A stretch of DNA of 64,000 bases from an uncultured Acidobacteriota bacterium (GCA_963836075.1 CAWIIB010000009.1:544001-608000), one strand, 5' to 3'; positions 28,413 to 46,011 are shown, counted from the stretch's first letter. Numbers and translations are program-made. Notes: generated by a model not told the origin, from the sequence alone.

Positions 28413-29729
28413 CTACAGCTCATCCAGCGGGCTGCGTGCGTCCGGTGCCATCGCCTGCAATACATGGGTGTAGAGCATGGTTGTTTCCACGCTTTTGTGC
28501 CCGAGCAGATCTTGCACCCGACGGATGTCCGTGCCCTTCATCAGAAGCGCCGTGGCAAAGCTGTGTCTCAATGAATGACAACCAGCCGGCTTGGCAATCC
28601 CCGACCGCCGCACCGCCTCCTTCATCGCCCTCTGCACCGTTGCAGTGGCCATATGCCAACGCCGAATCACGCCATCATCACCCACGTTCAGCTTGGCCGA
28701 TGGGAACACAAACTGCCAGCCCCATTCACGCCCCGCATTGGCGTATTTCCGCTTTAGGGCATCCGGCAACGGCGCCTCACCGGCACCAGCCGCCAAGTCA
28801 CGCACGTGCAGGTCCTTCACCTTGGCCAGGTGGTCCTTCAGGCCCTGAACCAACCGCTCCGGTAAAAAGGTAACACGGTCTTTGTCCCCCTTGCTCACCC
28901 GCACCATAATCGATCCGGATGCGAAGTCGATTTCCTTCACCCGTAACTGCACCAGTTCGCTCACCCGCAACCCGCTGCCATAAACCAACTCGAGCATGAG
29001 CCGGTATACCCCCCGAAGTTCATTGAAAACAGCACGCGCCTCTTCCGGCATCAGCACCACCGGCAATCGACGCCCCCGCCGAGCTCGCACTGTTGCGCCC
29101 ATGTCACCCAGATCTTTCATCAGCACATGGCGGAACAAAAACAGCAGTGCATTGAAAGCCTGATTCTGGGTGGATGATGCCACGTTGCGCTGAACAGCTA
29201 GATAGCTGAGATACGACCTCACATCATCCGTTGTCGGTGCAACCCTGGTTGTCCCGTCCACGTAAGCGAGAAATCGCTGAGCCCAACCCAGATAGCTGCG
29301 CTCAGTACGATTTGCATAGCGACGCAACCTCATCAGCTGCCGCATCTCCACCAGCAGCTGCTTTGCGTTCAAGGCCCCAGTATTTCCACATTCACCACCT
29401 ACACCTGATTCCCCGCTCGCCGCACTCGAACCTGTGGAGCTGCCGGAACCATGTACATCAGTTGCCACCCCCGTAACCTGCTGTTTACGATACTGACCAC
29501 AGAAGAGTGCCACCGCATCGGCTGCTTGTCGCAGTTGCCAGCCCTGGGTCCTCCCCTCCCCCAGGTCCTCCAGGAAAACCAGCAACGTGTCCTGCCAGAC
29601 CTCAATCTGCCTGCTTGACTGCAACCGCAGGAACCGCTCCACCCACCCCACGAAAAACTGTATTTTGTGATCGGAAGTCATCCGCTTCTCACGCAGCCAC
29701 ACCGCGTATGCTTCCAACTCGCTGTTCAT
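28413..29729 (-). CDS. intI: Integron integrase with long N-terminal extension
   Basis: ASSTQNQAFNALLFLF, YGSGLRVSE, KGDKDR, IntI-specific insertion LPDALKRKYANAGREWGWQFVFPS, HSLRHSFAT, LLGH, TMLYTHV. Confidence 0.96.
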   Translation of the reverse strand: MNSELEAYAVWLREKRMTSDHKIQFFVGWVERFLRLQSSRQIEVWQDTLLVFLEDLGEGRTQGWQLRQAADAVALFCGQYRKQQVTGVATDVHGSGSSTGSSAASGESGVGGECGNTGALNAKQLLVEMRQLMRLRRYANRTERSYLGWAQRFLAYVDGTTRVAPTTDDVRSYLSYLAVQRNVASSTQNQAFNALLFLFRHVLMKDLGDMGATVRARRGRRLPVVLMPEEARAVFNELRGVYRLMLELVYGSGLRVSELVQLRVKEIDFASGSIMVRVSKGDKDRVTFLPERLVQGLKDHLAKVKDLHVRDLAAGAGEAPLPDALKRKYANAGREWGWQFVFPSAKLNVGDDGVIRRWHMATATVQRAMKEAVRRSGIAKPAGCHSLRHSFATALLMKGTDIRRVQDLLGHKSVETTMLYTHVLQAMAPDARSPLDEL

Positions 29730-29948
29730 CCCCACCCAGCCTTCTGTATCAATCTGATTACTTGCAGTTTACACGTATCGCCAAACACAATACCCGACTA
29801 TGCAACCAGTCTAATATCCAGGTAATACCTGCCAATCACGACCCTGCCAACCAACCTGCGAATATCCAGCCTCCTGGATATCAAACTATCCTCCTATCCG
29901 AGTAATGGCCCGGTTATACCAATCTATTGCAGCCACATTGCCGATCTC

Positions 29949-29977
29949 TTGACTATCGGCCCACCCGTGTTTACCAT
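29949..29977 (+). promoter_or_regulatory. Candidate cassette promoter Pc
   Basis: TTGACT-17 bp-TACCAT pointing into the array. Confidence 0.45.
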
Positions 29978-30069
29978 ATGACACAATGACTTGTACTCAT
30001 TCGGGTTCCGACCTTGACCTGCAACACTATGAAAAGAAAGCAATATGCGTGCCCGAATTCCCTTTTTTT

Positions 30070-30098
30070 GTGTATAGTCAGATATAGAATTGTTGAAC
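30070..30098 (+). other. attI site (crossover G/TTGAAC at 30092)
   Basis: GTTGAAC is the exact complement of R'' GTTCAAC of the first attC; no attC hairpin upstream. Confidence 0.6.
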
Positions 30099-30177
30099 TT
30101 AGCCGCTTCGCGGGGAATAAATCTTGCATAGACAGATAGTTGCGTTGATCGTGGTCCCATACCTACCGTGGTGATAT

Positions 30178-31338
30178 ATGGAAGGCAGGATTCAAGCGAT
30201 ATTCCGTCAGCACTTCGATGCGTATGCCTCGGAACATCGTCTTCCCCTACATGCCCATAAAGCCGCCCGTTCAATCATCAGCTGCCGCACCGAAGCGATG
30301 GGCGGGCACGTGATGCGCTGCCCCGCCGGCCACCTCGAGAAGATCTCATACAACTCCTGCAAGCACCGTTCCTGCCCCCAGTGCTCGAGCCTGCCCGCGG
30401 AACGCTGGCTCGAGAACCAGAAGGCGCAGTTGCTGGCCACCAATCACTTCCACGTGATCTTCACCATGCCCGATGGTCTGAACGACCTCTGGCGATGGAA
30501 CAGGAAGTTGATGGCCGACCTGCTGTTCAAGGCTTCCCGCGACACCCTCTTCGAGCTGCTCGGCGATGAACGCTATCTCGGCGCAAAGCCGGGTCTGATG
30601 AGTTCCCTCCACACCTGGGGCCGAACACTGGTCCTGCACCCGCACCTGCACTGCCTGGTCACTGGTGGCGGTCTGGATGACGAAGGCAACTGGCGACAAG
30701 CCAGGCAGGGCTACCTTCTCCCAGCCCGCCTGGTGAGCGCCCTTTACAAGGGCAAGATGATCGCCTTCATCAGCAAGACGTTCAACGAGGGTAAGCTCCG
30801 GCTACCCGCCGGATCACGGCCCAAGGACCTGTTCCGCCTGCTGGCCCGGCTCAAGAAGAAGAAGTGGAACGTCCGCCTGCAGAGTAAATACGCACACGGC
30901 AACGGCGTGACCACCTATCTCGCCCGATACGTCAAGGGCGGCCCGATCTCCAACCGTCGCGTGATCCGTGTCGATGGACACCACGTGTGGTTCCGCTACA
31001 CGGACCACCGCGACGGCCGCAACAAGACGATGAAGCTCACGCATCGCGAGTTCTTTAATCGGCTTCTGCAGCACGTACCTGTCCCCTACAGCCACACCGT
31101 GAGGTATTACGGGCTTTACCACTCGCACAACATCGATTCACTGAATCGCTGTCGATCGATTATGGGCCAGGCACCGGTGGAAAAACCGGAGCTGATGGAC
31201 TGGTCAGCCTACTGTGAGAAGATCGGTTTGGCCGACCAGGTGACGTGCCCGGTCTGCGGACGGCGGATCATCTACGCCGGCCCCTTGAAACGAGGCAAAC
31301 CACCGCCGGAGGGAGAGCGCTATGACCAAGCAGCGTAA
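30178..31338 (+). CDS. IS91-family (Y2 HUH rolling-circle) transposase, cassette 1
   Basis: Zn-binding YNSCKHRSCPQC, HFHVIFT, LHTWG, HUH motif HPHLHCLVTGGG, YLARY, VRYYG. Confidence 0.92.
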   Translation: MEGRIQAIFRQHFDAYASEHRLPLHAHKAARSIISCRTEAMGGHVMRCPAGHLEKISYNSCKHRSCPQCSSLPAERWLENQKAQLLATNHFHVIFTMPDGLNDLWRWNRKLMADLLFKASRDTLFELLGDERYLGAKPGLMSSLHTWGRTLVLHPHLHCLVTGGGLDDEGNWRQARQGYLLPARLVSALYKGKMIAFISKTFNEGKLRLPAGSRPKDLFRLLARLKKKKWNVRLQSKYAHGNGVTTYLARYVKGGPISNRRVIRVDGHHVWFRYTDHRDGRNKTMKLTHREFFNRLLQHVPVPYSHTVRYYGLYHSHNIDSLNRCRSIMGQAPVEKPELMDWSAYCEKIGLADQVTCPVCGRRIIYAGPLKRGKPPPEGERYDQAA

Positions 31339-31557
31339 TCACAACCTCTTCTCTGCAGCCTCATTCAACCAGGGGGAAGTGCGTCCACGGGCAACAGCCT
31401 CGATCAGATGGTGTATACCTCAGTTTCCAAAGTGTTTAGGCCGGTTAACAGTAGTTGCATTTTACGTTTTCGGAATAGACGATCGCATACGACCAGATTC
31501 ATTACTCGATGGGTGTGTGAAGAGGTGAAAACTCCATAAGGTCGAATAAAGGGGCCT

Positions 31558-31654
31558 GTTCAACCAGTAGATTGAGTTGACCGCCGACCTGTCACGTCAA
31601 TTGCGGGGCAACTGTCGCGCCAGGACGGCTCGCAACTCATCTAAGACGTTCTGC
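31558..31654 (+). repeat. attC1 (singleton type)
   Basis: GTTCAAC...TGAGTTG...CAACTCA...GTTCTGC. Confidence 0.8.
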
Positions 31655-31673
31655 GAAAGATCGAAGGTAAGCA

Positions 31674-32105
31674 ATGTCGTTAAAGGCCAATAAATTGCTC
31701 GTACGACGCTTATATGAAGAAGCATTCAACACCGGAAATGTTGAATTGATCGAGAGCCTTGTCTCTCCCGAATACACAGAAGTTCATGATGGGAAAAGGC
31801 ATGTCATTGGCATAGAGGGCGCTAAAGCACACGCGGTTGGTGTTCGTCAGACTTATCCGGATCTTCATATCTCAATCGAACAACAAATTGCTGAAGGCGA
31901 GTGGGTCGTCTCCTGTATTACAGCAACAGGAACACATAAAGGTTCCTGGCTGGGTATCAAGCCGACTGGCAAGTCTGTTACTTTCACTGGTGTCAATGTT
32001 GATCGCGTTATAAAAGGAAAGATTGTAGAACATGGTGGTGCTGCCAACATGCTTGGTCCTTTGATGGAGATTGGGGCGATTGAGGGGGTAGGCAACACTG
32101 ATTAA
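31674..32105 (+). CDS. SnoaL-like ester cyclase (cassette)
   Basis: NKLLVRRLYEE, PDLHISIEQQIAEGEWV, GTHKGSWLGIKPTGK. Confidence 0.88.
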   Translation: MSLKANKLLVRRLYEEAFNTGNVELIESLVSPEYTEVHDGKRHVIGIEGAKAHAVGVRQTYPDLHISIEQQIAEGEWVVSCITATGTHKGSWLGIKPTGKSVTFTGVNVDRVIKGKIVEHGGAANMLGPLMEIGAIEGVGNTD

Positions 32106-32112
32106 ATTACTC

Positions 32113-32228
32113 GCAGAACCATCCCATACACCTGTCAGCCAGGTGTCACGGCCCTTGCTGAACAACCGGTCGCTCTCCTGGTGGCAACGGCCGTGCCACC
32201 TGTCTGCAGGTGATGGGTGACGTTAGGC
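32113..32228 (+). repeat. attC family A
   Basis: GCAGAAC...CACCTG...GTCACGGCCCTTGC...GCAACGGCCGTGCC...CAGGTG...GTTAGGC. Confidence 0.9.
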
Positions 32229-32309
32229 AGACTGGCTTCGTCTGCCAGCTTGAGAAGTCTGAGAGAGAGTGAGAAATGAAGATTCGATTGCCTGAGGAGG
32301 TTGAAGAAC

Positions 32310-32486
32310 ATGCGCCGTCGAGGTCCCGTGTCCACTGTGATCTTGTTCCTGGCTTTCGCAGTGATGTTCTCACTGGTTTTCTGGCCTGAGGTTTCCTTGG
32401 CAGCGAAGATTGCGTTCTTCGCAGCCGGCGTTGGCTGCGGCGTGGGCATCGCACGCTGGCGCGGAGCAGTTCGTAAGCAGAGTTAG
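32310..32486 (+). CDS. Small two-TM membrane protein (cassette)
   Basis: RBS GAGGAGG; hydrophobic; fills the cassette. Confidence 0.55.
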   Translation: MRRRGPVSTVILFLAFAVMFSLVFWPEVSLAAKIAFFAAGVGCGVGIARWRGAVRKQS

Positions 32487-32520
32487 CATGGAGCGTGCTC
32501 GCGCGGCGGCTCGGCCAGAT

Positions 32521-32641
32521 GCCTGACAGGCGATTGCAGCCGCCGGGCTTGCCTGTCACGTCGACTACACCGCGGGCTGACGCCCGCGACGCACCCGCCG
32601 CGCCAGTCTGGCGCACGCGGCTGAAATGCGTTTCGTTAGGC
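32521..32641 (+). repeat. attC (singleton; R'' GCCTGAC variant)
   Basis: GCCTGAC...CAGCCG...CGGCTG...GTTAGGC. Confidence 0.7.
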
Positions 32642-32728
32642 GGCGCGAGTTTGTCAGCCCCTTGTGGCCAAACGCCTCCCGATGTTTGACAAGGCGCCGT
32701 GCGTGGCGTGAAGTAGGAGATCGAAGAT

Positions 32729-33070
32729 ATGGACGCCAGCACTAGTGAGCCGGTCGCAGTCGTAGTTAACGAGGCACAACTTCTCCTTGCAGAGAAACGC
32801 ACCTCCCTGGCAGTCATGCGAACAGGTATCGCCGTGCTTGCCTTACCGCTGTCGGTGTTCAGTTTACTGGTCGCGACATCGAAGTATTACGATGTCCTCA
32901 ATGTCCTGCACTTCCTGATACCGCTGGCGAGTCTTTGTATCGCCTTACTCGTCTTTGGAACCTATCTGATAGTTGCTTCTGCCCGAAAGATCCGACAAGC
33001 CGATAGCCTGATTCATCGGATCAAGCTGGAGCATAGCGCAATCGCCCAGTTTCTAGAGCCAATGGAGTAA
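32729..33070 (+). CDS. DUF202/YidH-like membrane protein (cassette)
   Basis: LLAEKRTSLAVMRTGIA motif followed by TM helices. Confidence 0.7.
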   Translation: MDASTSEPVAVVVNEAQLLLAEKRTSLAVMRTGIAVLALPLSVFSLLVATSKYYDVLNVLHFLIPLASLCIALLVFGTYLIVASARKIRQADSLIHRIKLEHSAIAQFLEPME

Positions 33071-33123
33071 GTGGCTATGTGTATTCGGGAAGTTTCAGGC
33101 AAACGGGACAGGTCGTGAACACG

Positions 33124-33220
33124 GTCTAACAGGAGCTTGCACCTGACAAAGCCGCTTGTCACGCCCCTGGCGGCGCCAGGGCCGCGCCAACCGACTTTGC
33201 AGGTGAAGCCATCGTTAGGC
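33124..33220 (+). repeat. attC (singleton)
   Basis: GTCTAAC...CACCTG...CAGGTG...GTTAGGC. Confidence 0.85.
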
Positions 33221-33231
33221 CGGAGAAAAGC

Positions 33232-33708
33232 ATGATTATGACAAAACATATTCTATGCGCCACAGTGTTATTGACAGCCTTTTGCCTATGTCCAGTCGGC
33301 TTATCAAATGAGCCTCCATTGAAGCTTGATCCAATAGATTTGTCTGGTCCGTATGAAGTTGAGTTAGGTGACTGGAAGCCGGCGCTGGAATTGGGAGCTG
33401 ACATTCAATACATCACTCCACCTCGCCAAATATCACTTAGCACAGCGAAGGCACCAGGACTGAAGCCAGAAGATCAAAGTGTTCGTCTAATAAAGCCATT
33501 TCCGGATGGTTCTAAAGTCATCCACAGCTTCTCATGTTGGGAGATTCGTAAGGATGGCAAAATCGATATTTGTTTCAGCACTGGACACAGCGGAATCTAT
33601 ATGATGGTAACCATCTCAGGTGATCGACTTATAGGAACAGCAGAGACATTTTGGAATTTTCCGAGGCAAATCCAAAGGGCCAAGGTGCAACTGAAGCGTG
33701 TTCATTGA
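33232..33708 (+). CDS. Secreted hypothetical protein, family X copy 1
   Basis: Signal peptide; paralogous to 35880 and 36521. Confidence 0.8.
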   Translation: MIMTKHILCATVLLTAFCLCPVGLSNEPPLKLDPIDLSGPYEVELGDWKPALELGADIQYITPPRQISLSTAKAPGLKPEDQSVRLIKPFPDGSKVIHSFSCWEIRKDGKIDICFSTGHSGIYMMVTISGDRLIGTAETFWNFPRQIQRAKVQLKRVH

Positions 33709-33719
33709 AGCAAAGCTCG

Positions 33720-33867
33720 GCCTAACAACCACATGCAACGGCCAAGCCGAATCCGTCACGCTGGTTGCATACCGCGCGGTCAATCAAAAGTCACGTGCGG
33801 GAACTACCAGGCATTGCCAAAGCAACCAGCGCGCCGGCCGGCTTGCCGCTGATGGGTGGCGTTATAC
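33720..33867 (+). repeat. attC family B
   Basis: GCCTAAC...CGGCCAAGCCG...GTCACGCTGGTTGC...GCAACCAGCGCGCC...CTTGCCG...GTTATAC. Confidence 0.9.
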
Positions 33868-33886
33868 GCAAAGAGATATTTAAAGG

Positions 33887-34354
33887 ATGACAGAATCCGA
33901 AAGCATCAAGTATCGACTGATGATTGATGGTGAAGAGGATATTGTATCAAGCTTGGTGCAAACGTCATTCATGAAACACATCGCTTCATACTACAAACAG
34001 GATGGGATTAACGAGGTATTACGACTATCTGAACCATTTTCTATCAAAGCTCGGAATGAAGCTGGCAACGTGTTCATCGTATGTATGATCGGCTCTAAGC
34101 TTGCAGGAATGATGGAGTATAGAGACCCGGCACATATTGGTTTACTGTTTGTAGATCCAGATTATATGGGCCGAGACATCGGAGGAGGATTCATTGCTGA
34201 AGCGAAAGAGCGAGCGAAGGGCACTTTTGATGTAATAACAGTGAATGCCTCTCCCAACTCCGTCGCATTCTATGCAAAATACGGTTTCACTCACATTGGA
34301 GGAGTGAAGGAGGACGGGGGTATAGTATTTTATCCTATGGCCTTAGCTATTTAG
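33887..34354 (+). CDS. GNAT acetyltransferase (cassette)
   Basis: LLFVDPDYMGRDIG, VNASPNSVAFYAKYGF. Confidence 0.88.
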   Translation: MTESESIKYRLMIDGEEDIVSSLVQTSFMKHIASYYKQDGINEVLRLSEPFSIKARNEAGNVFIVCMIGSKLAGMMEYRDPAHIGLLFVDPDYMGRDIGGGFIAEAKERAKGTFDVITVNASPNSVAFYAKYGFTHIGGVKEDGGIVFYPMALAI

Positions 34355-34360
34355 AGAATC

Positions 34361-34476
34361 GTATAACAAACCCATTCACCTGGCAGCCAGGTGTCACGGC
34401 CCTTGCTGAGCAAACGGTCGTTCTCCTGGTGGCAACGGCCGTGCCACCTGCCCGCAGGTGATGGGTGACGTTAGAT
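34361..34476 (+). repeat. attC family A
   Basis: GTATAAC...GTTAGAT. Confidence 0.9.
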
Positions 34477-34489
34477 GCGAGAGGTTCTT

Positions 34490-34987
34490 ATGAAATGTAG
34501 ATATTTTCAATTTGTAGTGCTTACCACTATTATTCTGAGCACTCATGCATTTGCTCATGTCGACACGATACTGCCCTTAAAAGATGGCGTGATAACGGGG
34601 TTACCCGAGCAATACCATCCGGCCTTGTTCGATGCAAATGAGCCCTCCATCCAAATCGGCCAGAACAAACTTGTCTTCCCACCATGCATAGCGAAGTACT
34701 TTCTCACGGACATGCGATTTGAACCGAATATCGACGACTGCAGTATTGAAATTAGCGGATCTTGGTATCACAACTCGTCAATCTTACCGCCATATATTTC
34801 AATCGATATTCATCCAGAGGAGCGACACTATTACTATTCGATACTACTTTCTCTAGAATCCCTGGAAATAATCCATGTTCAAGTGGTTATAAAAGAAAAG
34901 CATGTAACTTCCTATAACGAGATATCCATCAATGATCCCTGTAAGGCCCTATTGTCGAAATCATACTCAAAATTACCATTGCCATAG
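34490..34987 (+). CDS. Secreted hypothetical protein (cassette)
   Basis: Signal peptide ending AFA; fills the cassette. Confidence 0.7.
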   Translation: MKCRYFQFVVLTTIILSTHAFAHVDTILPLKDGVITGLPEQYHPALFDANEPSIQIGQNKLVFPPCIAKYFLTDMRFEPNIDDCSIEISGSWYHNSSILPPYISIDIHPEERHYYYSILLSLESLEIIHVQVVIKEKHVTSYNEISINDPCKALLSKSYSKLPLP

Positions 34988-35029
34988 CAGAGGGTATTGA
35001 ATCACTGTTTAATAGGTTTTAGAAGGCGC

Positions 35030-35145
35030 ATCTAACAAACCCATTCACCTGTCAGCCAGGTGTCACGGCCCTTGCTGAGCAGCCAGTCGTTTCCCTGGTG
35101 GCAACGGCCGTGCCACCTGTCCGCAGGTGATGGGTAACGTTGTGC
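35030..35145 (+). repeat. attC family A
   Basis: ATCTAAC...GTTGTGC. Confidence 0.9.
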
Positions 35146-35156
35146 AAAAATAACTC

Positions 35157-35185
35157 TTGACAATACGTACATGATAACGTACGTT
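35157..35185 (+). promoter_or_regulatory. TA cassette promoter with CGTAC operator repeats
   Basis: TTGACA-17-TACGTT; ACGTAC...CGTACGT. Confidence 0.6.
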
Positions 35186-35206
35186 TGATGGTGTAGGAGG
35201 TGCACC

Positions 35207-35449
35207 ATGGCAACCATTACAGCAACAGAGGCAAGGGCCAAGCTTTACAGCTTGATAGACGAAGCAGAGAACTCCCACGAGCCCATTGTGATCACAGGAA
35301 AACGAGGTAACGCAGTGTTGGTTTCCGAAAACGACTGGAACGCCATAAAGGAAACATTGTTCTTGCTTTCCATTCCTGGCATGCGTGAATCGATTGTTGA
35401 GGGCATGAAAGAGCCGTTGGAGGAATCTTCTAAAAATCTCGATTGGTAG
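35207..35449 (+). CDS. yefM: Phd/YefM antitoxin
   Basis: ATEARAKLYSLIDE...PIVITGKRGNAVLVS...ETLFLLS. Confidence 0.92.
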   Translation: MATITATEARAKLYSLIDEAENSHEPIVITGKRGNAVLVSENDWNAIKETLFLLSIPGMRESIVEGMKEPLEESSKNLDW

Positions 35450-35454
35450 GACGG

Positions 35455-35715
35455 ATGTGGGACCTCTACTTCACGAAACGGGCACAGAAGGACGCAAAGA
35501 AAATAGCTGCGGCAGGTCTGAAGAATAAGACAAAGCAACTTCTAGAAATCATCCGTGAAAACCCATTCCAAAATCCCCCTCCATACGAAAAATTGGTTGG
35601 CGATTTAGCCGGCGCATATTCCCGACGTATCAACATTCAACATCGTTTAGTGTACCAAGTATATGAAAAGGAGAAGATCGTACGGGTACTCCGAATGTGG
35701 ACCCACTATGAATGA
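35455..35715 (+). CDS. yoeB: Txe/YoeB toxin
   Basis: PPYEKLVGDLAGAYSRRINIQHRLVY...MWTHYE. Confidence 0.93.
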   Translation: MWDLYFTKRAQKDAKKIAAAGLKNKTKQLLEIIRENPFQNPPPYEKLVGDLAGAYSRRINIQHRLVYQVYEKEKIVRVLRMWTHYE

Positions 35716-35722
35716 ACAGAAT

Positions 35723-35868
35723 GCACAACCACCACATTCAGCGGCCAAGCCAATTCCGTCACGCTGGTTGCATACCGAGCGGTCAATCAGATGGCCCGTT
35801 ATAACGCTGTCAAGCATTGCCAAAGCAACCAGCGCGCCGGGGCTTGCCGCTGATGTGAGGCGTTAGGC
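35723..35868 (+). repeat. attC family B
   Basis: GCACAAC...GTTAGGC. Confidence 0.9.
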
Positions 35869-35879
35869 CGAGGAAAAGC

Positions 35880-36356
35880 ATGATTACAACAAAGCATATT
35901 CTATGCGCCACAGTTTTATTGACAGCCTTTTGCCTATGCCCAGTCTGCTTATCAAATGAGCCTCCATTGAAGCTTGATCCAATAGTTCTGTCTGGTCCGT
36001 ATGAAGTTGAGTTGGGTGAATGGGAGCCGGCGCTGGAATTGGGAACTGATATTCAAACCATCACTCCACCTGTCCAAATATCACTTAGCACAGAGAAGGC
36101 ACCAGGACCGAAGCCAGAAATTCAAAGTGTTCGTCTAATAAAGCCCTTTCCGGATGGTTCTAAAGTCATCCACAGCTACTCATTTTGGGAGATTCGTAAG
36201 GATGGAAAAATCGATATTTGTTTCAGCACTGGCCACGGTGGAGTGTATATGACGGTATCAATCTCAAGTGATCGACTTATAGGAACAGCTGAGACATTTT
36301 GGGATTTTCCTAGGCAAACCCAAAGGGCCAAGGTGCAACTGAAGCGGGTTCATTGA
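35880..36356 (+). CDS. Secreted hypothetical protein, family X copy 2
   Basis: 138/158 aa identical to copy 1 by manual count. Confidence 0.8.
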   Translation: MITTKHILCATVLLTAFCLCPVCLSNEPPLKLDPIVLSGPYEVELGEWEPALELGTDIQTITPPVQISLSTEKAPGPKPEIQSVRLIKPFPDGSKVIHSYSFWEIRKDGKIDICFSTGHGGVYMTVSISSDRLIGTAETFWDFPRQTQRAKVQLKRVH

Positions 36357-36367
36357 AGCAAAGCTCG

Positions 36368-36515
36368 GCCTAACAACCACATGCAACGGCCAAGCCGAAT
36401 CCGTCGCGCTGGTTGCAGACCGCGCGCTAAACCAGATGTCCCGTTTCGGCGCTTTCAAGCAATGCTGGAGCAACCAGCGCGCCGGCCGGCTTGCCGCTGA
36501 TGTGGGGCGTTAGGC
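36368..36515 (+). repeat. attC family B
   Basis: GCCTAAC...GTTAGGC. Confidence 0.9.
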
Positions 36516-36520
36516 CGAAG

Positions 36521-37003
36521 ATGAGACAGATCATGAAGAGATTTATTACATACACCACAATACTTCTACCTGTTTTAATCCTATGCTCAGCCGGCATATC
36601 AGATGAGCATCCTCTGAAGCCCAATCCAAAGGATATATCTGGTCCATATCAAATAGTGTTAGGTGAATGGATACCAGCTCTAGATATAGGAGCTGACGTG
36701 AAGTTCATTACCCCACCTCATCAAATAATGCTTAGCACTGAGATTTTACCGGGTCCCAAGAATGCACTTGGCAATGCTCGTTATTTAAAGCCCTATCCAG
36801 AGGGTTCGCATTCAATACACAGCTACTCATTCTGGGAGATCCTCGATGATGGCAGCATCTTTATTTCTTTTAGCACCGGCTACAGCGGACTATTTATGAC
36901 GTTAACCGTCTCGGGTGATAAGCTTCTAGGAACAGCGGAAACGTTTTGGGATTTTCCGAGGCAAACCCAGACAGCAGAGGTCCAACTGAAGCGTATTCAA
37001 TAG
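36521..37003 (+). CDS. Secreted hypothetical protein, family X copy 3 (diverged)
   Basis: Shares SGPY, ITPP, IHSYSFWEI, FSTG, GTAETFWDFPRQTQ. Confidence 0.8.
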   Translation: MRQIMKRFITYTTILLPVLILCSAGISDEHPLKPNPKDISGPYQIVLGEWIPALDIGADVKFITPPHQIMLSTEILPGPKNALGNARYLKPYPEGSHSIHSYSFWEILDDGSIFISFSTGYSGLFMTLTVSGDKLLGTAETFWDFPRQTQTAEVQLKRIQ

Positions 37004-37015
37004 AAATGAGGTTTG

Positions 37016-37131
37016 GCCTAACAAACCCATGCACCTGTCAGCCAGGTGTCACGGCCCTTGCTGAACATACGGTCGCTCATCTGGTGGCAACGGCCGTGCC
37101 ACCTGCCCGCAGGTGATGGGTGACGTTATGT
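37016..37131 (+). repeat. attC family A
   Basis: GCCTAAC...GTTATGT. Confidence 0.9.
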
Positions 37132-37150
37132 GTATATAAAGGAATGTTAA

Positions 37151-37711
37151 ATGCGTAGCGGTCTTATTAGTGTTTGCTTGTTGGCTACATTTTTTCTCTC
37201 TTCAATGCAGACACACTCACAAGAGAATGTTCAACCAACGCCATGGGAAAAGAGAATAGCTGCATATCAATCAGAATATCCTGATTTGCCACCCCTAAAG
37301 CTATCCAAGAAGCTAAAGGAGCACTTCCTTTTTTTGATGGATTCTGAACTAGGCATCGTATTTGGGTATTTTTGTTACGAGGCAGGCCAACCGCCAAAGG
37401 CACGAATATCTTGCTTCCGCTTGCTTGAGAGACGGAGGATTCTAGCTTTTCGCTACTTACTCCGCTTTGGGAATCCTGGGAGCAAGCTATATGCCGTTGA
37501 AAGCCTATACCTGCTAAAAGCGTGGGGATATGACATACCTGAGGAAGATACTCTACTCATTGAACAAGTTCTTAAATCTGAAGACCGTGCTGATGTTTGC
37601 AATGGTTGTATGGTGTCCACGGAGCCTTTGCATCGTGCCCTGACTCAAAAGGATCTCGAGCGAGTCGAAGAGAATTGGCAGGCATACAAAAAGATGGGTT
37701 GGGTAAGATAG
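37151..37711 (+). CDS. Secreted hypothetical protein (cassette)
   Basis: RBS AAGGA, signal peptide. Confidence 0.7.
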   Translation: MRSGLISVCLLATFFLSSMQTHSQENVQPTPWEKRIAAYQSEYPDLPPLKLSKKLKEHFLFLMDSELGIVFGYFCYEAGQPPKARISCFRLLERRRILAFRYLLRFGNPGSKLYAVESLYLLKAWGYDIPEEDTLLIEQVLKSEDRADVCNGCMVSTEPLHRALTQKDLERVEENWQAYKKMGWVR

Positions 37712-37719
37712 CAGAGAAC

Positions 37720-37834
37720 ACATAACAATCCCATACACCTGTCAGCCAGGTGTCACGGCCCTTGCTGATCTGACGGTCGTTTTGCTGGCGGCAACGGCCG
37801 TGCCACCTGCCGCAGGTGATGGGTGGCGTTATAC
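37720..37834 (+). repeat. attC family A
   Basis: ACATAAC...GTTATAC. Confidence 0.9.
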
Positions 37835-37849
37835 GGCAAAGGCTAGATT

Positions 37850-38395
37850 ATGGATATCGTTTGGCGAGTAGTGATAGTGATTGTTGTCACAGTCATAGTG
37901 AATGTATCGATCTTCCTATCTCCAAGACGACGCCATGAATTATCCAATGAGACATCCATAGAGCTCCGATATCCTCTAGGCTTTTTGATTATTAGCATCA
38001 TAGGTATTGCCTTAGCCAGCATGATGGTTCTTGTAGCAATAAATAAAGACAGCCTTCGCGAAGCACTACCGCCGACTATCGTATCCATTCCCTTTCTCTT
38101 GTTGGGTCTGTACATTCTTCTAGAGTTGAGAAAGAAGATAGTCCTTCGTCCAGATGGTTTCTACTCTCATACACCGTGGAAGCATGACTCATTCGTACCT
38201 TGGTCCAGCATACGGGTCGTACGCTATTCAGCGGTGAATGACTGGTTTATCCTAGATATCGGAAACAGCATGCACCGAATCAGCACCCACTTTGTATATT
38301 TCCCAGCTTTTCTTGATGGGTTAATGAAGAATGTGGAGCCATCTATTTGGAAGGCAGCAATCGAAAAGTATGCCAGGCCGAAAGTAGCCGTATAA
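37850..38395 (+). CDS. Membrane protein with probable bacterial PH-like C-terminus (cassette)
   Basis: Three TMs then FVPWSSIRVV; stop lies inside R''. Confidence 0.7.
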   Translation: MDIVWRVVIVIVVTVIVNVSIFLSPRRRHELSNETSIELRYPLGFLIISIIGIALASMMVLVAINKDSLREALPPTIVSIPFLLLGLYILLELRKKIVLRPDGFYSHTPWKHDSFVPWSSIRVVRYSAVNDWFILDIGNSMHRISTHFVYFPAFLDGLMKNVEPSIWKAAIEKYARPKVAV

Positions 38396-38504
38396 CAAGC
38401 CCATTCACCTGATGCCAGGTGTCACGGCCCTTGCTGGGCATCCGGTCGATCTCCTTGGTGGCAACGGCCGTGCCACCCGCCACAGGTGATGGGTGACGTT
38501 CGAC
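38390..38504 (+). repeat. attC family A
   Basis: GTATAAC...GTTCGAC. Confidence 0.9.
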
Positions 38505-38512
38505 GTAAAAGA

Positions 38513-39067
38513 ATGAAATTAAAATCGACAAAATCAGATGATCCAGCATTCGTCAGGCTCGTTGCCTCGATTCTTGATTCTGCTGTAGCCGAGAGCACTC
38601 CCGACATTGTGACGGTCATTCAGATCAAGAATTGGTTTGACCATAAGTGGCTCAAATTCTCGGGCAAGGTGTTGGGGGCATTCGGAATATGGAAGTCGGA
38701 ACTGACAGTACCTCCATTCCATCCGAACCGAGTCGTCAGCCAAACGGTAAGCCGCTTGACTGATGGTCTATACGAAGAATTCGAGGCTCCTCCCCTCCAC
38801 GTTTTGCAGCCCAGTTCTGCAAATCACAGCCGGAAGATGAGATACCAAACGGAATCAGGTGTCTTTGCGTGGTGGACAAGCAACACGGTTGAAAATGATC
38901 AAGGGAGCCTGATGGTTTACACCCAGATTGATGGTGAGTCCGTTACCTGGTTTCTTGGGTTTCAGAAAACAGATGACTGGAAGATTATCAAAAGGATAGG
39001 CATTCCAGACGTCATCATTGAAAAGCATATGAAGGGCGTCGAACAACCCCATTCACCTGTCGGCTAG
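38513..39067 (+). CDS. Hypothetical protein (cassette; reads into attC)
   Basis: ORF fills the cassette; IKNWFDHKWLKFSGK. Confidence 0.7.
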   Translation: MKLKSTKSDDPAFVRLVASILDSAVAESTPDIVTVIQIKNWFDHKWLKFSGKVLGAFGIWKSELTVPPFHPNRVVSQTVSRLTDGLYEEFEAPPLHVLQPSSANHSRKMRYQTESGVFAWWTSNTVENDQGSLMVYTQIDGESVTWFLGFQKTDDWKIIKRIGIPDVIIEKHMKGVEQPHSPVG

Positions 39068-39153
39068 GTGTCACGGCCCTTGCTGATCTACCGGGCGTGC
39101 ACCTGGCGGCAACGGCCGTGCCACCTGCCTGCAGGTGATGGGTGACGTTCGAC
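39038..39153 (+). repeat. attC family A
   Basis: GTCGAAC...GTTCGAC. Confidence 0.9.
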
Positions 39154-39159
39154 GCAAAG

Positions 39160-39489
39160 ATGATAAAAATGAGTAACAGTGAAGAGATTCGCAAAGAACG
39201 TGAAAGGCTGAAGCAGAAATATAGTGGTGCTTTCAGTCGATTGAGCCAGGTTCTCTTCACTGAAGATCCCATAGGAATAAATTTCGGTGACAATACCGAC
39301 GAATACGAACCTGAGGTTGGTACTATCCTCTCAAGGCTAAGTCATTGTCGTTCAACGGATGAAATCCAAAAGGTTGTGCACGAGGAGTTTGTTAAGTGGT
39401 TCGACTCCGAAATAGCGGGCCCATTTGAGAGATACGAGACTGTAGCTAAACGTATTTATGATGAGGTGTTGCCAACCCTATCAGGATGA
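39160..39489 (+). CDS. YugE/DUF1871-like protein (cassette)
   Basis: DPIGI...DEYEPEV...F.KWF motif. Confidence 0.7.
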   Translation: MIKMSNSEEIRKERERLKQKYSGAFSRLSQVLFTEDPIGINFGDNTDEYEPEVGTILSRLSHCRSTDEIQKVVHEEFVKWFDSEIAGPFERYETVAKRIYDEVLPTLSG

Positions 39490-39496
39490 TTGGGAC

Positions 39497-39614
39497 GTCG
39501 AACAACCCCATTCACCTGTTGCCCTGGTGTCACGGCCCTTGCCGAGCATCAGGTCGCCATCGCTGGCGGGCAACGGCCGTGCCACCTGTCTGCAGGTGAT
39601 GGGTGACGTTCGGC
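39497..39614 (+). repeat. attC family A
   Basis: GTCGAAC...GTTCGGC. Confidence 0.9.
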
Positions 39615-39634
39615 CTGCATAGCTGAAAAATATA

Positions 39635-39669
39635 TTGACAAATCGAATGGTATCACATATAATACCATC
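39635..39669 (+). promoter_or_regulatory. Consensus promoter giving a probably leaderless toxin mRNA, with operator palindrome
   Basis: TTGACA-17-TATAAT-6 nt-ATG; ATGGTAT...ATACCAT. Confidence 0.75.
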
Positions 39670-40096
39670 ATGAAGCCAAGCATAGTCATTGATACTAGTG
39701 TCCTCATTGCCGCTTTGCGGTCTAAGCATGGAGCCTCGTTCAGGCTTCTTAAGTTAATTGGTAAGAACAAGTTTGAACTAAACGTTTCAGTCCCGCTCAT
39801 TCTTGAACTTGAAGCAGTGGCCAAACGGCCCGGGAAAGTGCCAGGCCTTACTAGTGAAGATATTGACGACGTTATAGACTACATCTGTCGAGTCTCCCAT
39901 CACCGAATGATCCATTTTCTGTGGCGACCAACGCTCAGAGACCCTGGTGATGACCTCGGTACTTGAACTTGCCGTCGAAGCCGAATGTGACTATATCGTC
40001 ACCCACAATGTACGCGACTTCGACAAGGCTGAACAGTTTGGGATCTCTACTGTGACGCCTCGGCAGTTCTTAGGGATCATTGGAGAGCTACCATGA
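39670..40096 (+). CDS. PIN-domain toxin, one-base frameshift near 39958
   Basis: VIDTSVLIAAL, LRDPGDD; shifted frame continues VLELAVEAECDYIVTHNVRDF. Confidence 0.85.
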
Positions 40097-40329
40097 GTAC
40101 CATTAGCCTCAGAATCCCGGAATCTCTGCATGAGCGCGTGAGAGAACTTGCCAAGCAAGAAAACATCTCAATAAATCAATTCATCTCTACGGCTCTCGCT
40201 GAGAAAATTTCAGCATTACTGACCGCCGAGTACCTTGAAGAACGGGCGCTCCGTGGAAGACGCGCCAAGTTTAATCGTGCTCTCTCCAAAGTCAGTGACG
40301 CTGCTCCGGACAAATCTGACGAAATCTAA
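40093..40329 (+). CDS. Ribbon-helix-helix (HicB-like) antitoxin
   Basis: STISLRIPESLH...ISINQFISTALAEK; ATGA overlap. Confidence 0.85.
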   Translation: MSTISLRIPESLHERVRELAKQENISINQFISTALAEKISALLTAEYLEERALRGRRAKFNRALSKVSDAAPDKSDEI

Positions 40330-40355
40330 TTGAATACTTGAATGGCCATAAAGAG

Positions 40356-40470
40356 GCCGAACCAGCCCATGCACCTGTCAGCCAGATGTCACGGCCCTTG
40401 CTGAGCAACCGATCGTACCTCTGGCGGCAACGGCCGTGCCACCTGTTGCAGGTGATGGGTGACGTTATAA
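40356..40470 (+). repeat. attC family A
   Basis: GCCGAAC...GTTATAA. Confidence 0.9.
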
Positions 40471-40512
40471 AGCGATACATGAACCGGCATCTCGATGCGA
40501 GAGGTAGAGCTC

Positions 40513-41193
40513 ATGGCTGTTGAGATCATACCGATTCCACTTGGATTCGACACATGCTACGTCTTGAGAGCAGATGGTATGGTTGCGGTAGATGCCGGCG
40601 CCCCGAACAAGGTCAATCACTTTCTGTCCGGTTTGCAGCGTGCTGCAATTCAGCCCGAAGACATACAATTGATTGTGATTACACACGGTCATTGGGATCA
40701 CATTGGCTCTGCAAGCGACATGAAGTCGGCCACAGGTGCGAAGATCGCAATGCATGAAAACGAGATCGTTTGGTTGGAGCAGTCTCGAACGCCACTTTCT
40801 CCTGGTGTGACATGGTGGGGACGAATCTTTCGCGGCGTGCACCTAGTTTTCATGCCGTTGATAAAAGTCCCACCAGCAAAGGTAGACCTGCCGCTGAATA
40901 ACGACGGCCTTTCGCTGTCTGACTTTGGAATACCCGGTTGCATTTTGAGCACGCCGGGTCACTCATCGGGATCTGTTAGCGTGCTCCTCGATGGTGGTGA
41001 AGCGCTGGTTGGTGATCTTGCGATGAACAAGTTCCCACTGCGTTTGTCTCCTGGTCTTCCTATCTTTGCGGACGACCCAGGTGCGGTCATTGCCAGTTGG
41101 GAGTTGCTACTTGATGCGGGCGCAACGGAAGTCTATCCAGCCCATGGAAGGCCGTTTTCGGCGGATGTGATCCGACGCGCCATCGCTGTATAA
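40513..41193 (+). CDS. MBL-fold metallo-hydrolase (cassette)
   Basis: THGHWDHIG, TPGHSSG, VGD, YPAHG. Confidence 0.9.
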   Translation: MAVEIIPIPLGFDTCYVLRADGMVAVDAGAPNKVNHFLSGLQRAAIQPEDIQLIVITHGHWDHIGSASDMKSATGAKIAMHENEIVWLEQSRTPLSPGVTWWGRIFRGVHLVFMPLIKVPPAKVDLPLNNDGLSLSDFGIPGCILSTPGHSSGSVSVLLDGGEALVGDLAMNKFPLRLSPGLPIFADDPGAVIASWELLLDAGATEVYPAHGRPFSADVIRRAIAV

Positions 41194-41303
41194 CCAGCCC
41201 ATTCACCTGGCGCCAGGTGTCACGGCCCTTGCTGGGCAAACGGTCGCTCCTCAGGTGGCAACGGGCCGCGCCACCTGTCTGCAGGTGATGGGTGACGTTA
41301 AAC
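41188..41303 (+). repeat. attC family A
   Basis: GTATAAC...GTTAAAC. Confidence 0.88.
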
Positions 41304-41325
41304 GCACTTATAAGATAAAAAGAGC

Positions 41326-41360
41326 TTGACGCGTAACGTTATACGTCATATCTTACTACC
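41326..41360 (+). promoter_or_regulatory. higBA promoter, probably leaderless, with operator
   Basis: TTGACG-17-TATCTT-6 nt-ATG; TGACG...CGTCA palindrome. Confidence 0.7.
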
Positions 41361-41649
41361 ATGATACGGTCATTCAAAAACAAAGAGACGGAGAAACTCT
41401 TCGGCCGTGTCCGGTCAGCAAAGCTTCCGGGGGATATCCAACGAGTTGCCCTACGAAAGCTCCGCATGCTTCACCGGGCAAAAACCCTTGCGGACCTTAG
41501 AGTTCCGCCAGCAAACCGACTTGAGCGCCTTTCGGGTAATCGAGCCGGTCAGGTACAGTATTCGTATCAATGATCAGTGGCGTATCTGTTTCCGCTGGGA
41601 TTCTGGTGACGCCTTCGAAGTTGAGATCGTTGACTATCATCGAGGCTAG
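41361..41649 (+). CDS. higB: HigB toxin, one-base frameshift near 41552
   Basis: MIRSFKNKETEKLF...PPANRLERL; shifted frame YSIRINDQWRICFRW...VEIVDYH. Confidence 0.88.
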
Positions 41650-41651
41650 CC

Positions 41652-41957
41652 ATGGCTAAAAACAAGCTTGATCCGGTCCACCCTGGTGAGATCCTATTTG
41701 AGGAATTCCTCAAACCTATGGGGCTCAGTCAAAACCAGCTCGCTAATGATATTGGTGTCCCCCCTCGTCGAATCAACGAGATTGTTCATGGTAAGCGTCG
41801 CGTTACGGCGGATACGGCTTTGCGGTTGGCAAAATATTTCAAGATGTCCCCAGAGTTTTGGCTCGGTCTTCAGATGGACTACGAGTTAGACCTCGAAATG
41901 GACCGTCTTGGTGACCGTTTAAGCAAGGAAGTTGGCGAATATTCACGAGCATCTTAG
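41652..41957 (+). CDS. higA: HigA antitoxin
   Basis: HPGEILFEEFLKPMG...RINEIVHGKRRVTADTALRL...FWLGLQ. Confidence 0.93.
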   Translation: MAKNKLDPVHPGEILFEEFLKPMGLSQNQLANDIGVPPRRINEIVHGKRRVTADTALRLAKYFKMSPEFWLGLQMDYELDLEMDRLGDRLSKEVGEYSRAS

Positions 41958-41964
41958 AAGAGGC

Positions 41965-42079
41965 GTCCAACAAGCCCATTCACCTGTCAGCCAGGTGTCA
42001 CGGCCCTTGCTGAACACTTGGCCGTTCTTCTGCTGGCAACGGCCGTGCCACCTGTTGCAGGTGATGGGTGGCGTTATGT
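41965..42079 (+). repeat. attC family A
   Basis: GTCCAAC...GTTATGT. Confidence 0.9.
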
Positions 42080-42093
42080 TTGAAGAGAATGAT

Positions 42094-42561
42094 ATGGAAT
42101 CAATGAGGACCTTAAAAGCTATAGAAGGTTTTATACAGCTTGTTGAGCAAGAGGGCTTCCCTGATGAAGCGCAACTTAAATTGGCGCTTGATGAGCTTGC
42201 TCTTGCAAGCAATATATGCACAGATTTTGAATTTGATGAAAGAGAATTACCAGAGGCACCAGACCTCGATCAGATAAAAATTCGAGACATGGTCTATTCT
42301 AAATTTCCAGATTATGGAATGTATAATTTACCTGAAAAAGTTGGAGGCGATTTGTCTGAGACAGAATAAATGCTTGGCAGTGCCCATGACGACTTACAGG
42401 ACATTTACAGAGATCTAAAAGAAGTAAAATGGACTTGGGAAAATAATAGTGCCGAGGATGGAATGTGGTATTTTCATTGGGGCTATGACCATCATTGGGG
42501 AGCTCATTTAAGAAATCTTCAATGGTATCTATATAATTCAAGATACGAAGGAAGCAGATAA
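42094..42561 (+). pseudogene. DUF5063-like protein with in-frame TAA at 42367-42369
   Basis: Two contiguous same-frame ORFs; the C-terminal part has DDLQDIYRDL...HWGAH. Confidence 0.6.
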
Positions 42562-42564
42562 ATA

Positions 42565-42638
42565 ACATAACAAGGCAAATCAACTCGGATGCAATTTCCG
42601 CTGTGCTCCATTCGCACCGGTTATTTGCAGCGTTATGT
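42565..42638 (+). repeat. Short attC (74 bp, foreign type)
   Basis: ACATAAC...CAAAT...GTGCTCCATTCGCAC...ATTTG...GTTATGT. Confidence 0.85.
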
Positions 42639-42655
42639 TTCCATGAGAATATGTG

Positions 42656-43012
42656 ATGATTAATCGAGCAGCTGTCATATTAAAATACAAAGCTCCTGCG
42701 GTTAAATGGATAAATGAAGCGGATCCGAATGCCAAAGGGCGGGAGTTTGATATCTCGCTGGAATCGGTAAATGAGGAAAGGACTGTTTATCTTATACCTG
42801 AAGAAGATGCAGATAATGATGCTGCTTTTAAAAAGTGGATTCGAAGATACTACAGTACGCTTTTTGAGTGGGAACTTGAGGGCTGGTACACAGATGAAGA
42901 GATGTGGCCAAAGGACAGAACATTGGAGCTTTTCAACGAGTGGTTCGAGGTCCAGTGCCATACCGTTATTGAAGACACCGTGGGTGATCCGATAGAAGAT
43001 GACGAAACATAA
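42656..43012 (+). CDS. Acidic hypothetical protein (cassette)
   Basis: INRAAVILK...WYTDEEMWPKDRT...FNEWF; stop inside R''. Confidence 0.75.
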   Translation: MINRAAVILKYKAPAVKWINEADPNAKGREFDISLESVNEERTVYLIPEEDADNDAAFKKWIRRYYSTLFEWELEGWYTDEEMWPKDRTLELFNEWFEVQCHTVIEDTVGDPIEDDET

Positions 43013-43122
43013 CCATCCCATTCACCTGTCAGCCAGGTGTCACGGCCCTTGCTGAACAGATGGTCGTTATCCTGGTGGCAACGGCCGTGCCACCTGCCCA
43101 CAGGTGATGGTCGGCGTTAGCT
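43007..43122 (+). repeat. attC family A
   Basis: ACATAAC...GTTAGCT. Confidence 0.9.
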
Positions 43123-43143
43123 CGACTCCAGAGAGGAAGATTA

Positions 43144-43407
43144 ATGAAGGCATATGGGAAACCTTCTATCGATTCCATCCGCTCTTTTGAAACATCAGCT
43201 CTATCATGTGCAAAGACCACGGATCCGCCCCCAGGATCTTTCCATTTGGGAAGTGCATACGATACCTTCACTGGCCATTTTGCTTTTGGATGGGGGACTT
43301 TGGAATCCCAAACCGGTTCAGCAGGCATCGGATTTGGCCCTGGTGGAACCTCATATTCTGGATCATATATGGGCGCTTGTGGTATATGGATAACATTCAG
43401 CTCTTAA
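43144..43407 (+). CDS. 87-aa RiPP-precursor-like peptide (cassette)
   Basis: RBS AGAGGAAG; fills the cassette; YGKPSI leader-like motif; reading frame supported by the homolog at 57826-57939. Confidence 0.7.
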   Translation: MKAYGKPSIDSIRSFETSALSCAKTTDPPPGSFHLGSAYDTFTGHFAFGWGTLESQTGSAGIGFGPGGTSYSGSYMGACGIWITFSS

Positions 43408-43422
43408 GTTAATCGAATGATG

Positions 43423-43537
43423 AGCTAACAATCCCATTCACCTGTCGTCCAGGTGTCACGGCCCTTGCTGAACCACCGGTCGTTTTGCTGGCGGCAACGG
43501 CCGTGCCACCTGCCGCAGGTGATGGGTGGCGCTGTGC
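43423..43537 (+). repeat. attC family A with mutated R' (GCTGTGC)
   Basis: AGCTAAC...GCTGTGC; the next cassette's R'' GCACAAC implies ancestral GTTGTGC. Confidence 0.85.
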
Positions 43538-43560
43538 TATATAGAACGTGGACACCTCAT

Positions 43561-44976: not shown

Positions 44977-44986
44977 ATGGATGAAC

Positions 44987-45105
44987 GCACAACAATTGAA
45001 TTGAGCGGGCCGGGGATTCCATCCCCAGCGGTCAGGCGAATGGCTTGAGCCACCCACGCGCCGGATAAGCATCCGGCATCCCGGCCGCTCATTCTGTCGT
45101 TGGAC
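44987..45105 (+). repeat. attC (singleton)
   Basis: GCACAAC...TGAGCGGGCCGGG...CCGGCCGCTCA...GTTGGAC. Confidence 0.85.
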
Positions 45106-45214
45106 GGCAACTGGAGGAATAAGACAGTAAACGGACAGGGCAATATCCGTAAGACCTTCAATAACTATAGCTTGCCTCTTGTTTTATCGTATCATCACAT
45201 GATATAGTAAGACC

Positions 45215-45830: not shown

Positions 45831-45862
45831 TATTGAAATCAGTAGTATTTTGATAATCCACC

Positions 45863-46011
45863 GTCCAACAACCACATTCAACGGTCAAGCCGATTTCGTC
45901 ACGCTGGTTGCAATCCGCACGTTTGGTCAAAAGGCTCGCGCCGACGCTATCGGGCATTGCGAAGGCAACCATCTCGCCGACTCGGCTTGCCGCTGATGTG
46001 GAGCGTTAGCT
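45863..46011 (+). repeat. attC family B
   Basis: GTCCAAC...GTTAGCT. Confidence 0.9.

Follow-up and report, generated by a model that had tools for sequence, protein, structure and literature searches.

An integron array that opens with the gene of an IS91-family transposase raises the question of what moves that gene: the integron integrase (IntI), the transposase itself or both. The locus analysed here lies in a stretch of 64,000 nucleotides from an uncultured Acidobacteriota bacterium (GCA_963836075.1, CAWIIB010000009.1:544001-608000); this whole stretch is referred to as the window and all positions are counted from its first letter. The question touches on the origin of integron cassettes and on the source of single-stranded attC sites outside conjugation and replication, both of which are open.

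The transposase gene lies in the first cassette of a large integron

The window contains a large chromosomal integron. The integrase gene intI (28413-29735, minus strand) encodes a protein of 440 amino acids which matches the integron integrase profile TIGR02249 with 381.5 bits (cut-off 265) over positions 2-315 of 315, as well as Phage_integrase and Phage_int_SAM_4. Approximately 120 additional N-terminal residues are found ahead of the SAM-like domain, the profile matches beginning at residue 122-128. To the right of intI, from ~30 to 60 kb, extends a low-GC stretch with dozens of attC repeats in two families. The transposase cassette lies beside intI and attI in the orientation of the array, followed downstream by 27 complete resident attC sites; intI is divergent from it, 357 nt upstream. 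The intergenic region (29736-30092, plus strand) ends at attI with the crossover after G30092, the left cassette end at attI being placed by homology with other copies. A promoter-like site facing the cassettes was seen at 29949-29977, with a match no better than chance, and the promoter scan gave sites no more numerous than in shuffled sequences. An Rfam search of 29700-31750 gave zero matches.

The gene tnpA (30178-31338, plus strand) encodes an intact IS91-family Y2 HUH transposase of 386 amino acids with a zinc-binding N-terminus. The product matches Y2_Tnp (2.2e-57), Zn_Tnp_IS91 (2.9e-28) and, over 2-355 of 356 profile positions, the IS91 family transposase model NF033538 (387 bits, cut-off 125). 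In alignment with IS1294 TnpA, with which it shares 30% identity, its HPHLH and YLARY motifs correspond to HPHVH and YLGRY, and the catalytic residues of the HUH and YxxxY motifs are invariant across 30 homologues. Conservation at codon positions 1, 2 and 3 amounts to 0.84, 0.85 and 0.54 in five units, by which the protein appears to be under strong purifying selection. No partner recombinase gene was found inside the cassette, as the preliminary description of this DNA had noted. It had also suggested looking for other genomic copies, and here the search was negative: the element is single-copy in its own genome. Three distant IS91-like genes with frames of 466-470 amino acids and 25-27% identity are present in the same genome (contig C9, 2233320, 2469191 and 2477850; L002-L004).

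The cassette spans 30093-31648 (plus strand), running from TTGAAC through its attC to the G of the crossover point. GTTGAAC at 30092-30098 is the exact complement of GTTCAAC at 31558-31564, the R'' of its attC, so that the first six bases of the unit (TTGAAC) are complementary to its own R'' (GTTCAA). The attC, hereafter attC1 (31558-31654, plus strand), ends in R' GTTCTGC (31648-31654) with the crossover between 31648 and 31649. Its bottom strand is predicted to fold into one long imperfect bulged hairpin (-24.4 kcal/mol, z -3.25), and 1 of 200 shuffled sequences folded as well. The sequence of attC1 is unlike both resident attC families, which fits the expectation for a recent arrival.

The same pairing governs the array. 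In 21 of 23 adjacent resident pairs R' is the reverse complement of the next R'', compared with a mean of 2.2 of 27 in shuffled pairings, which bears out the earlier statement that most cassettes follow this rule. The resident sites were collected by regular expressions for the two resident families, a procedure blind to the pairing rule; a fold-based attC scan of the array was discarded because of its many false positives within coding DNA (11 of 70 'perfect'). Because the next cassette begins with TTCTGC and its own attC begins with GCAGAAC, the crossover point of attC1 is the one in use.

This next cassette (31649-32222, plus strand) encodes a SnoaL-like protein (31674-32105; Pfam SnoaL, 8.7e-32) and begins with TTCTGC at 31649, which pairs with GCAGAAC at 32113 at the opening of its attC (32113-32228). 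The attC of the third cassette (32516-32641) seems to begin with GCCTGAC, having GAC for AAC, and is partnered with the box GTTAGGC; its R'' may be decayed. Three paralogous cassettes follow at 33213-33512, 35861-36160 and 36508-36807. The first two encode secreted-looking proteins of 158 amino acids and are 92% alike in DNA (family D6); the one protein of the three that was searched had no Pfam match. Two small overlapping open reading frames at 35207-35715 share one cassette, and by eye we take them to resemble a Phd/YefM-YoeB antitoxin-toxin pair.

Recombination of the cassette in natural populations

Parts of 29800-31900 are present in 20 public metagenome runs from 11 studies, of which four runs (X1, X2, X3 and X8) were examined as contigs, in which rare forms cannot show. 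In X2, X3 and X8, which belong to three studies, contigs with 0-1 differences reach 31650 (...GACGTT) and then diverge, continuing with AGGC, AGGG and GGGC, respectively, whereas the window continues with CTGC. Divergence at this point in three runs fixes the right boundary of the unit at the G|TT of attC1 and shows that the site undergoes recombination in nature. The continuation in X2 equals the window from 50270 onwards (30 of 30 letters exact), and attC1 is thus joined in this run to a cassette beginning at 50268, which lies 18.6 kb farther along the array here. The X2 population has an array variant which lacks, or has moved, 18.6 kb of cassettes (31649-50267). On the left side, an X2 contig covering 29989-30723 with 0 differences agrees with the window across the attI junction; other contigs begin inside the cassette, at 30118 and 30140, and none showed its left end in another setting. 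In X1, the SnoaL cassette is represented by a 90%-alike copy that follows a different attC, one of resident type. While the three runs document the right junction, both junctions are visible in the comparison of two relatives, L092 and L093, which are 99.8% identical exactly from TTGGAC through the attC end and lie in unrelated surroundings.

A clade of transposases without partner recombinase

An alignment-based scan of GTDB genomes and JGI metagenomes supplied 159 loci of the family, to which three plasmid loci were added. A FastTree phylogeny of 142 full-length proteins, which excluded the frameshifted L011 and L097 together with 17 rows that were short or broken, separated 16 rows without adjacent recombinase from 126 other rows with a support of 99; this value is SH-like without bootstrap, and several partner-less rows sit on long branches. 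The gene of gcISKpn22, whose product shares 38% amino-acid identity with the transposase of the window, falls into the partner-less clade by the tree. In all comparisons given below the rows are related to each other, and the counts overstate their independence.

Elements of the partner-less clade begin with TTG(A/G/T)AC, and in 14 of 16 the unit is preceded by G. The R'' box reads GT(T/C/A)CAAC in 15 of the 16 listed elements, the other being GTCCAAA in L089, whereas this pattern is found in only 2 of 32 resident R'' boxes; L169 has GTTCAAC, too. Both ends are known for 15 elements; in 13 of these 15, all but L009 and L094, the 5' hexamer matches R'' as its exact complement, and the two ends covary as TTGAAC/GTTCAA, TTGGAC/GTCCAA and TTGTAC/GTACAA, a pattern into which L169 also fits. 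Where measured, the attC begins ~190-250 nt after the stop codon; shorter distances were seen in ISKpn22 (~175 nt) and in L169 (~50 nt past the end of homology). Thus, the proposed search of homologues for a GTTCAAC-type attC at a set distance downstream was positive in the 16-member clade. Furthermore, the relatives' ends are tied to attC, and the pairing rule in the window together with the covarying ends in relatives rules out that GTTGAAC is a chance match.

The position of the relatives varies: mid-array, last in a class 1 integron or outside integrons. The first slot next to attI, which the preliminary description had emphasised, is therefore true of the element in the window but is not a family trait. 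Another cassette's attC directly precedes the unit in L010, L011, L090, L091, L094, L097, L099, L168 and L169. In L091 and L011, the pairing rule holds for the following cassette too, and the attC of the transposase is distinct from the resident ones. L169 lacks the box in the 3' spacer described below and keeps the cassette build. Five members (L009, L088, L089, L092 and L093) are surrounded by ordinary chromosomal genes, and neither an integrase nor an attC was seen nearby. In this non-integron subclade, A or T precedes the unit in 2 of 5, the right flank reads TTATC in 3 of 4 known cases (L009, L092 and L093) and a left-flank motif of 16-21 nt, GTTRACATAG..CCG, is common to L009, L088 and L093. 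These shared flanks may mark a favoured insertion target or belong to a unit longer than the one defined here, and the copies themselves could be due to IntI insertion at secondary sites or to HUH insertion.

Some irregular loci were seen in addition. In L010 (Endozoicomonas MAG, 3700-4000), attC and the first ~85 nt of the cassette are tandemly duplicated upstream of the gene, possibly through faulty assembly, and a fragment of intI is located 3.9 kb upstream. In L096, five or six CAAC(R)(R)GGGATAT repeats like the integrase-binding repeats of attI are located just left of the unit (1400-1560), with no integrase within 1.5 kb, and the 13 nt GAACTTAATCGTT at the attC end are duplicated (3080-3107), GAAC then following GTT.

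The collected evidence bears on the idea of an IS91 lineage targeting att sites, in which HUH insertion would have occurred beside resident sites and the downstream attC would be a property of the host array, comparable to IS1111-attC elements and group IIC-attC introns. The GTTC within R'' speaks for such targeting. Against it, attC1 is unlike the resident families and remains attached to the gene in three runs whose downstream DNA differs, L092 and L093 have the same attC in different surroundings, the transposase attC differs from neighbouring resident sites in L091 and L011, and 5' hexamer and R'' covary, as they do in circularised cassettes. The element thus does not behave as one that sits in or beside a pre-existing resident attC. 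Since gene and attC travel together, targeting of resident attC sites is rejected for the partner-less clade, and as an explanation of the locus we consider it improbable.

Boundaries, pairing rule, fold of attC1 and the right junction in three runs all agree with the packaging of the transposase as a cassette that the preliminary description had suggested. We therefore conclude with high confidence that 30093-31648 is a bona fide and currently mobile integron cassette, and that it carries an intact Y2 HUH transposase of the IS91 family which belongs to the partner-less, ISKpn22-like clade. The cassette appears to be moved by integron integrases through the usual crossover at the G|TT of attI and attC.

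A sister clade with its own recombinase

In 117 of the 126 sister-clade rows, a tyrosine recombinase gene on the same strand ends less than 400 nt upstream of the transposase gene. The recombinase is IntI-like without the IntI-specific insert: in L019, the integron integrase model is the best family match, TIGR02249 giving 199 bits (cut-off 265) with a gap of 29 residues. L019 and L020 are built like the partner-less elements, with TTGAAC plus hairpin, a CCATAA box and GTTCAAC plus terminal hairpin, but have their own recombinase. In addition, the sister clade forms tandem copies, and the base before TT at the junctions is not always G. L019 (2713-8102) contains a partial right end and two full tandem copies with a period of 2599 nt, as expected of rolling-circle products.

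The cassette carries IS91-like ends

In PMC13181058, targets of the IS91 family are given as CTTG, GTTC, GTCC and GTAC, and terIS as a palindrome plus a GTTC cleavage site. For comparison, three IS1294 copies read, on the tnpA-sense strand, GAAC-CA-palindrome ... TTTCAATTTCCTATACGT, followed by GAAC or CAAG; the left end is GAAC CA CGGCAGCC TGG CGGCTGC.

The left end of the cassette has the same layout. Together with the preceding bases it reads GTT-GAAC-TTAG-CCGCTTCGCGG, and the terIS-like structure (30095-30113, plus strand) consists of GAAC, 4 nt and the hairpin CCGC-TTC-GCGG (30103-30113), GAAC-TTAG-CCGCTTCGCGG corresponding to GAAC-CA-CGGCAGCCTGGCGGCTGC of IS1294. A palindrome by a GTTC-type site is thus present upstream of tnpA, and on the bottom strand the left end is a hairpin followed by GTYC, the cleavage site of the family, two bases from the IntI cut. 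Across the clade, the end has the general form GRAC, then 3-4 nt, then a hairpin that is predicted in 16 of 16 elements with known 5' end and whose stems covary (CCGC/GCGG, CCATGC/GCATGG, CCAGC/GCTGG and GCCT/AGGC), the individual hairpins being weak (z -0.4 to -3.3).

The 3' spacer (31339-31557, plus strand) is of conserved length and extends over 219 nt from the stop codon to R'', in agreement with the 220 bp given before. It contains the oriIS-like box AACTCCATAA at 31530-31539, which resembles the right-end box TTCAATTTCCTATAC of IS1294, and a subterminal hairpin just before R''. A box of the form AAyyCCATAG is found ~150-250 nt 3' of the stop codon in both the partner-less and the recombinase-bearing clade. 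In the alignment of five units, the first 15 nt are conserved to 0.85 and the CCATAG box window to 0.81, compared with 0.24-0.5 in most spacer windows. A second island ~40 nt past the stop codon (31370-31392; aligned in L009 and L088-L095; approximately AGGGG-n-GT-n-GTGyG-yCTGGGG) is conserved to 0.61. Finally, the first four bases of R'' in the clade are GTTC, GTCC or GTAC only, as in IS91-family targets.

The link between GTTC and IS91 chemistry is therefore more than a word match: the R'' variants are among the targets reported in PMC13181058, and the left end is built like terIS of IS1294. By this organisation, the whole body of the cassette apart from attC would be an IS91-type element and not an ordinary passenger.

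The right end does not follow IS1294. No oriIS end abutted by GAAC or CAAG on the tnpA-sense strand was found: the box AACTCCATAA is internal, 19 nt before R'' and ~110 nt before the unit end, and the flanks right after the unit are CTGC, AGGC, AGGG and GGGC, none of them GAAC or CAAG. Downstream of the CCATAG box, the sense strand was searched for GRAC as the mark of an initiating nick, and no tetranucleotide recurred consistently. Moreover, the two ends of the unit are inverted repeats, by which either strand is readable as terIS-bearing.

How the cassette could be moved

IntI recombines the folded bottom strand of attC. The functional intermediate of the IS91 family is described in PMC13181058 as a bottom-strand circle. 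Since such an IS91 circle would carry the attC strand used by IntI, we propose a relay of HUH copy-out and IntI paste-in. The transposase would nick at the terIS-like and R'' sites of the cassette, that is, at its IS91-type sites, and roll out single-stranded copies; these would be circles bearing the attC bottom strand, the strand that IntI recombines, and would be inserted by IntI. The sister clade would bring its own IntI-like recombinase to this reaction, the partner-less clade would borrow that of the host integron. We infer this relay only from the orientation and conservation of the sites and judge the chances that it operates to be about even. Several findings count against it: the single copy in the genome, the lack of any circle, tandem or one-ended product of the cassette among the contigs (in which rare forms would not show), the position of the oriIS-like box 30-50 nt inside the unit and not at its end, top-strand flanks other than the GAAC/CAAG of canonical IS1294, the inverted-repeat ends, the cassette of L169 which lacks the spacer box, and the weakness of the single 5' hairpins. 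Also, the conservation at the 5' end could stem from a promoter or leader instead of a transposase site.

The same observations can be read as those of a pure passenger, an IS91-type element or gene that was once captured and is moved by IntI alone. Its IS-like ends would then be relics or serve expression, and the transposase would be kept for some other benefit or by hitch-hiking. Every mappable boundary is of IntI type, the element is single-copy, no canonical oriIS plus target is present at the unit end and L169 is still a cassette without the box, all of which agree with passive transport. However, the protein is under strong purifying selection with invariant catalytic motifs, the 5' hairpin region and the CCATAG box, which IntI does not need, are conserved well above third codon positions, R'' is held to IS91-type tetranucleotides, and one subclade lives outside integrons with a non-G left-junction base in 2 of 5. 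On balance, passive transport appears rather unlikely to us, if still worth serious consideration. Even if the transposase were inert, the element would define a widespread cassette family, for which a protein search gave 3600 relatives, the best 120 of the 3600 being 49-85% identical.

It is also conceivable that the enzyme serves the host, as a Y2 nuclease recruited by integrons to provide single-stranded DNA or nicks that aid cassette shuffling in general. The slot next to attI, downstream of the promoter-like site, and the array variant in X2 with attC1 joined to the cassette at 50268 would fit such a role. On the other hand, the transposase is absent at E <= 1e-20 from the 2 same-genus genomes searched, and the 60 other genomes in total (these 2 and 58 more) gave only two distant matches with 35-38% identity; the array position varies and conserved cis sites occur only within its own cassette. 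A host-serving enzyme is thus very improbable.

The proposed relay can be carried further. Read-through of IS91 past its terminator is one-ended transposition. In the extended form, the Y2 transposase would be a cassette replicase which nicks the GTYC of the terIS-like end and rolls bottom-strand circles with a folded attC ready for IntI, giving a replicative spread by two enzymes; read-through would link neighbouring genes to attC and so create new cassettes, and the sister clade would be the self-sufficient form, near a possible ancestral integron. This far-reaching version is a tentative one, and we regard it as unlikely.

What makes the element of interest in either case is that a natural element joins an enzyme that makes single-stranded DNA circles, of the bottom strand in IS91, to a site that IntI reads only as a folded bottom strand, and that the bases shared by both systems are conserved and covarying. 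It thereby links two systems of single-stranded DNA mobility, and it is a simple system of one cassette and two enzymes.

Comparison with known systems

IS1111-attC elements and group IIC-attC introns insert into existing attC sites. Both are mentioned in PMC9229058 and PMC7923331. Like the cassette in the window, they are mobile elements specialised on integron recombination sites, but here the element itself is a cassette with its own attC. Another physical link between an IS91-like rolling-circle element and integrons is ISCR1 of complex class 1 integrons (PMC8876359); it is located beyond the 3' conserved segment, is not a cassette and has no attC.

With the IS91 family proper (IS91, IS801, IS1294 and IS1294b) the element shares the Y2 HUH enzyme with N-terminal zinc domain, the left end of GRAC plus subterminal palindrome as in IS1294, the oriIS-like box and the tetranucleotides GTTC, GTCC and GTAC. 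It differs in that the cassette ends are IntI crossover points, an attC is carried and the ends are inverted repeats; in addition, no GAAC or CAAG flank abuts the oriIS end, and the element is single-copy here.

A plasmid search for the transposase gave no close relative, the top match being 40.6% identical. The closest counterpart in build is gcISKpn22, so named in INTEGRALL according to PMC6262049. A search limited to the main texts of one library of papers found gcISKpn22 named in two papers, analysed in neither, and yielded no mechanistic account of IS91-type transposase cassettes. Because INTEGRALL lists gcISKpn22, the kind is already catalogued and not wholly new. Of the preliminary interpretation as a whole, the packaging as a cassette and the connection to IS91 chemistry have held and an att-targeting lineage has not, while movement or copying of the cassette by the HUH enzyme stays a proposal.

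gcISKpn22 is the last cassette of In722 (intI1-aacA4'-3-blaIMP-6-aadA2-gcISKpn22), a class 1 integron on pKPI-6-type IncN plasmids. It differs from the cassette in the window by its place, the last slot of a clinical mobile class 1 integron instead of the slot adjacent to attI, by its spacer of ~175 nt and by a degenerate box. The build is otherwise alike: the attC of aadA2 ends in G|TTGAAC, followed by a small hairpin, a partner-less IS91-family transposase, a spacer and an attC that begins with GTTCAAC and ends with G|TTAGAT at the 3' conserved segment. Epidemic IncN plasmids with the blaIMP-6 class 1 integron therefore already carry a member of the clade.
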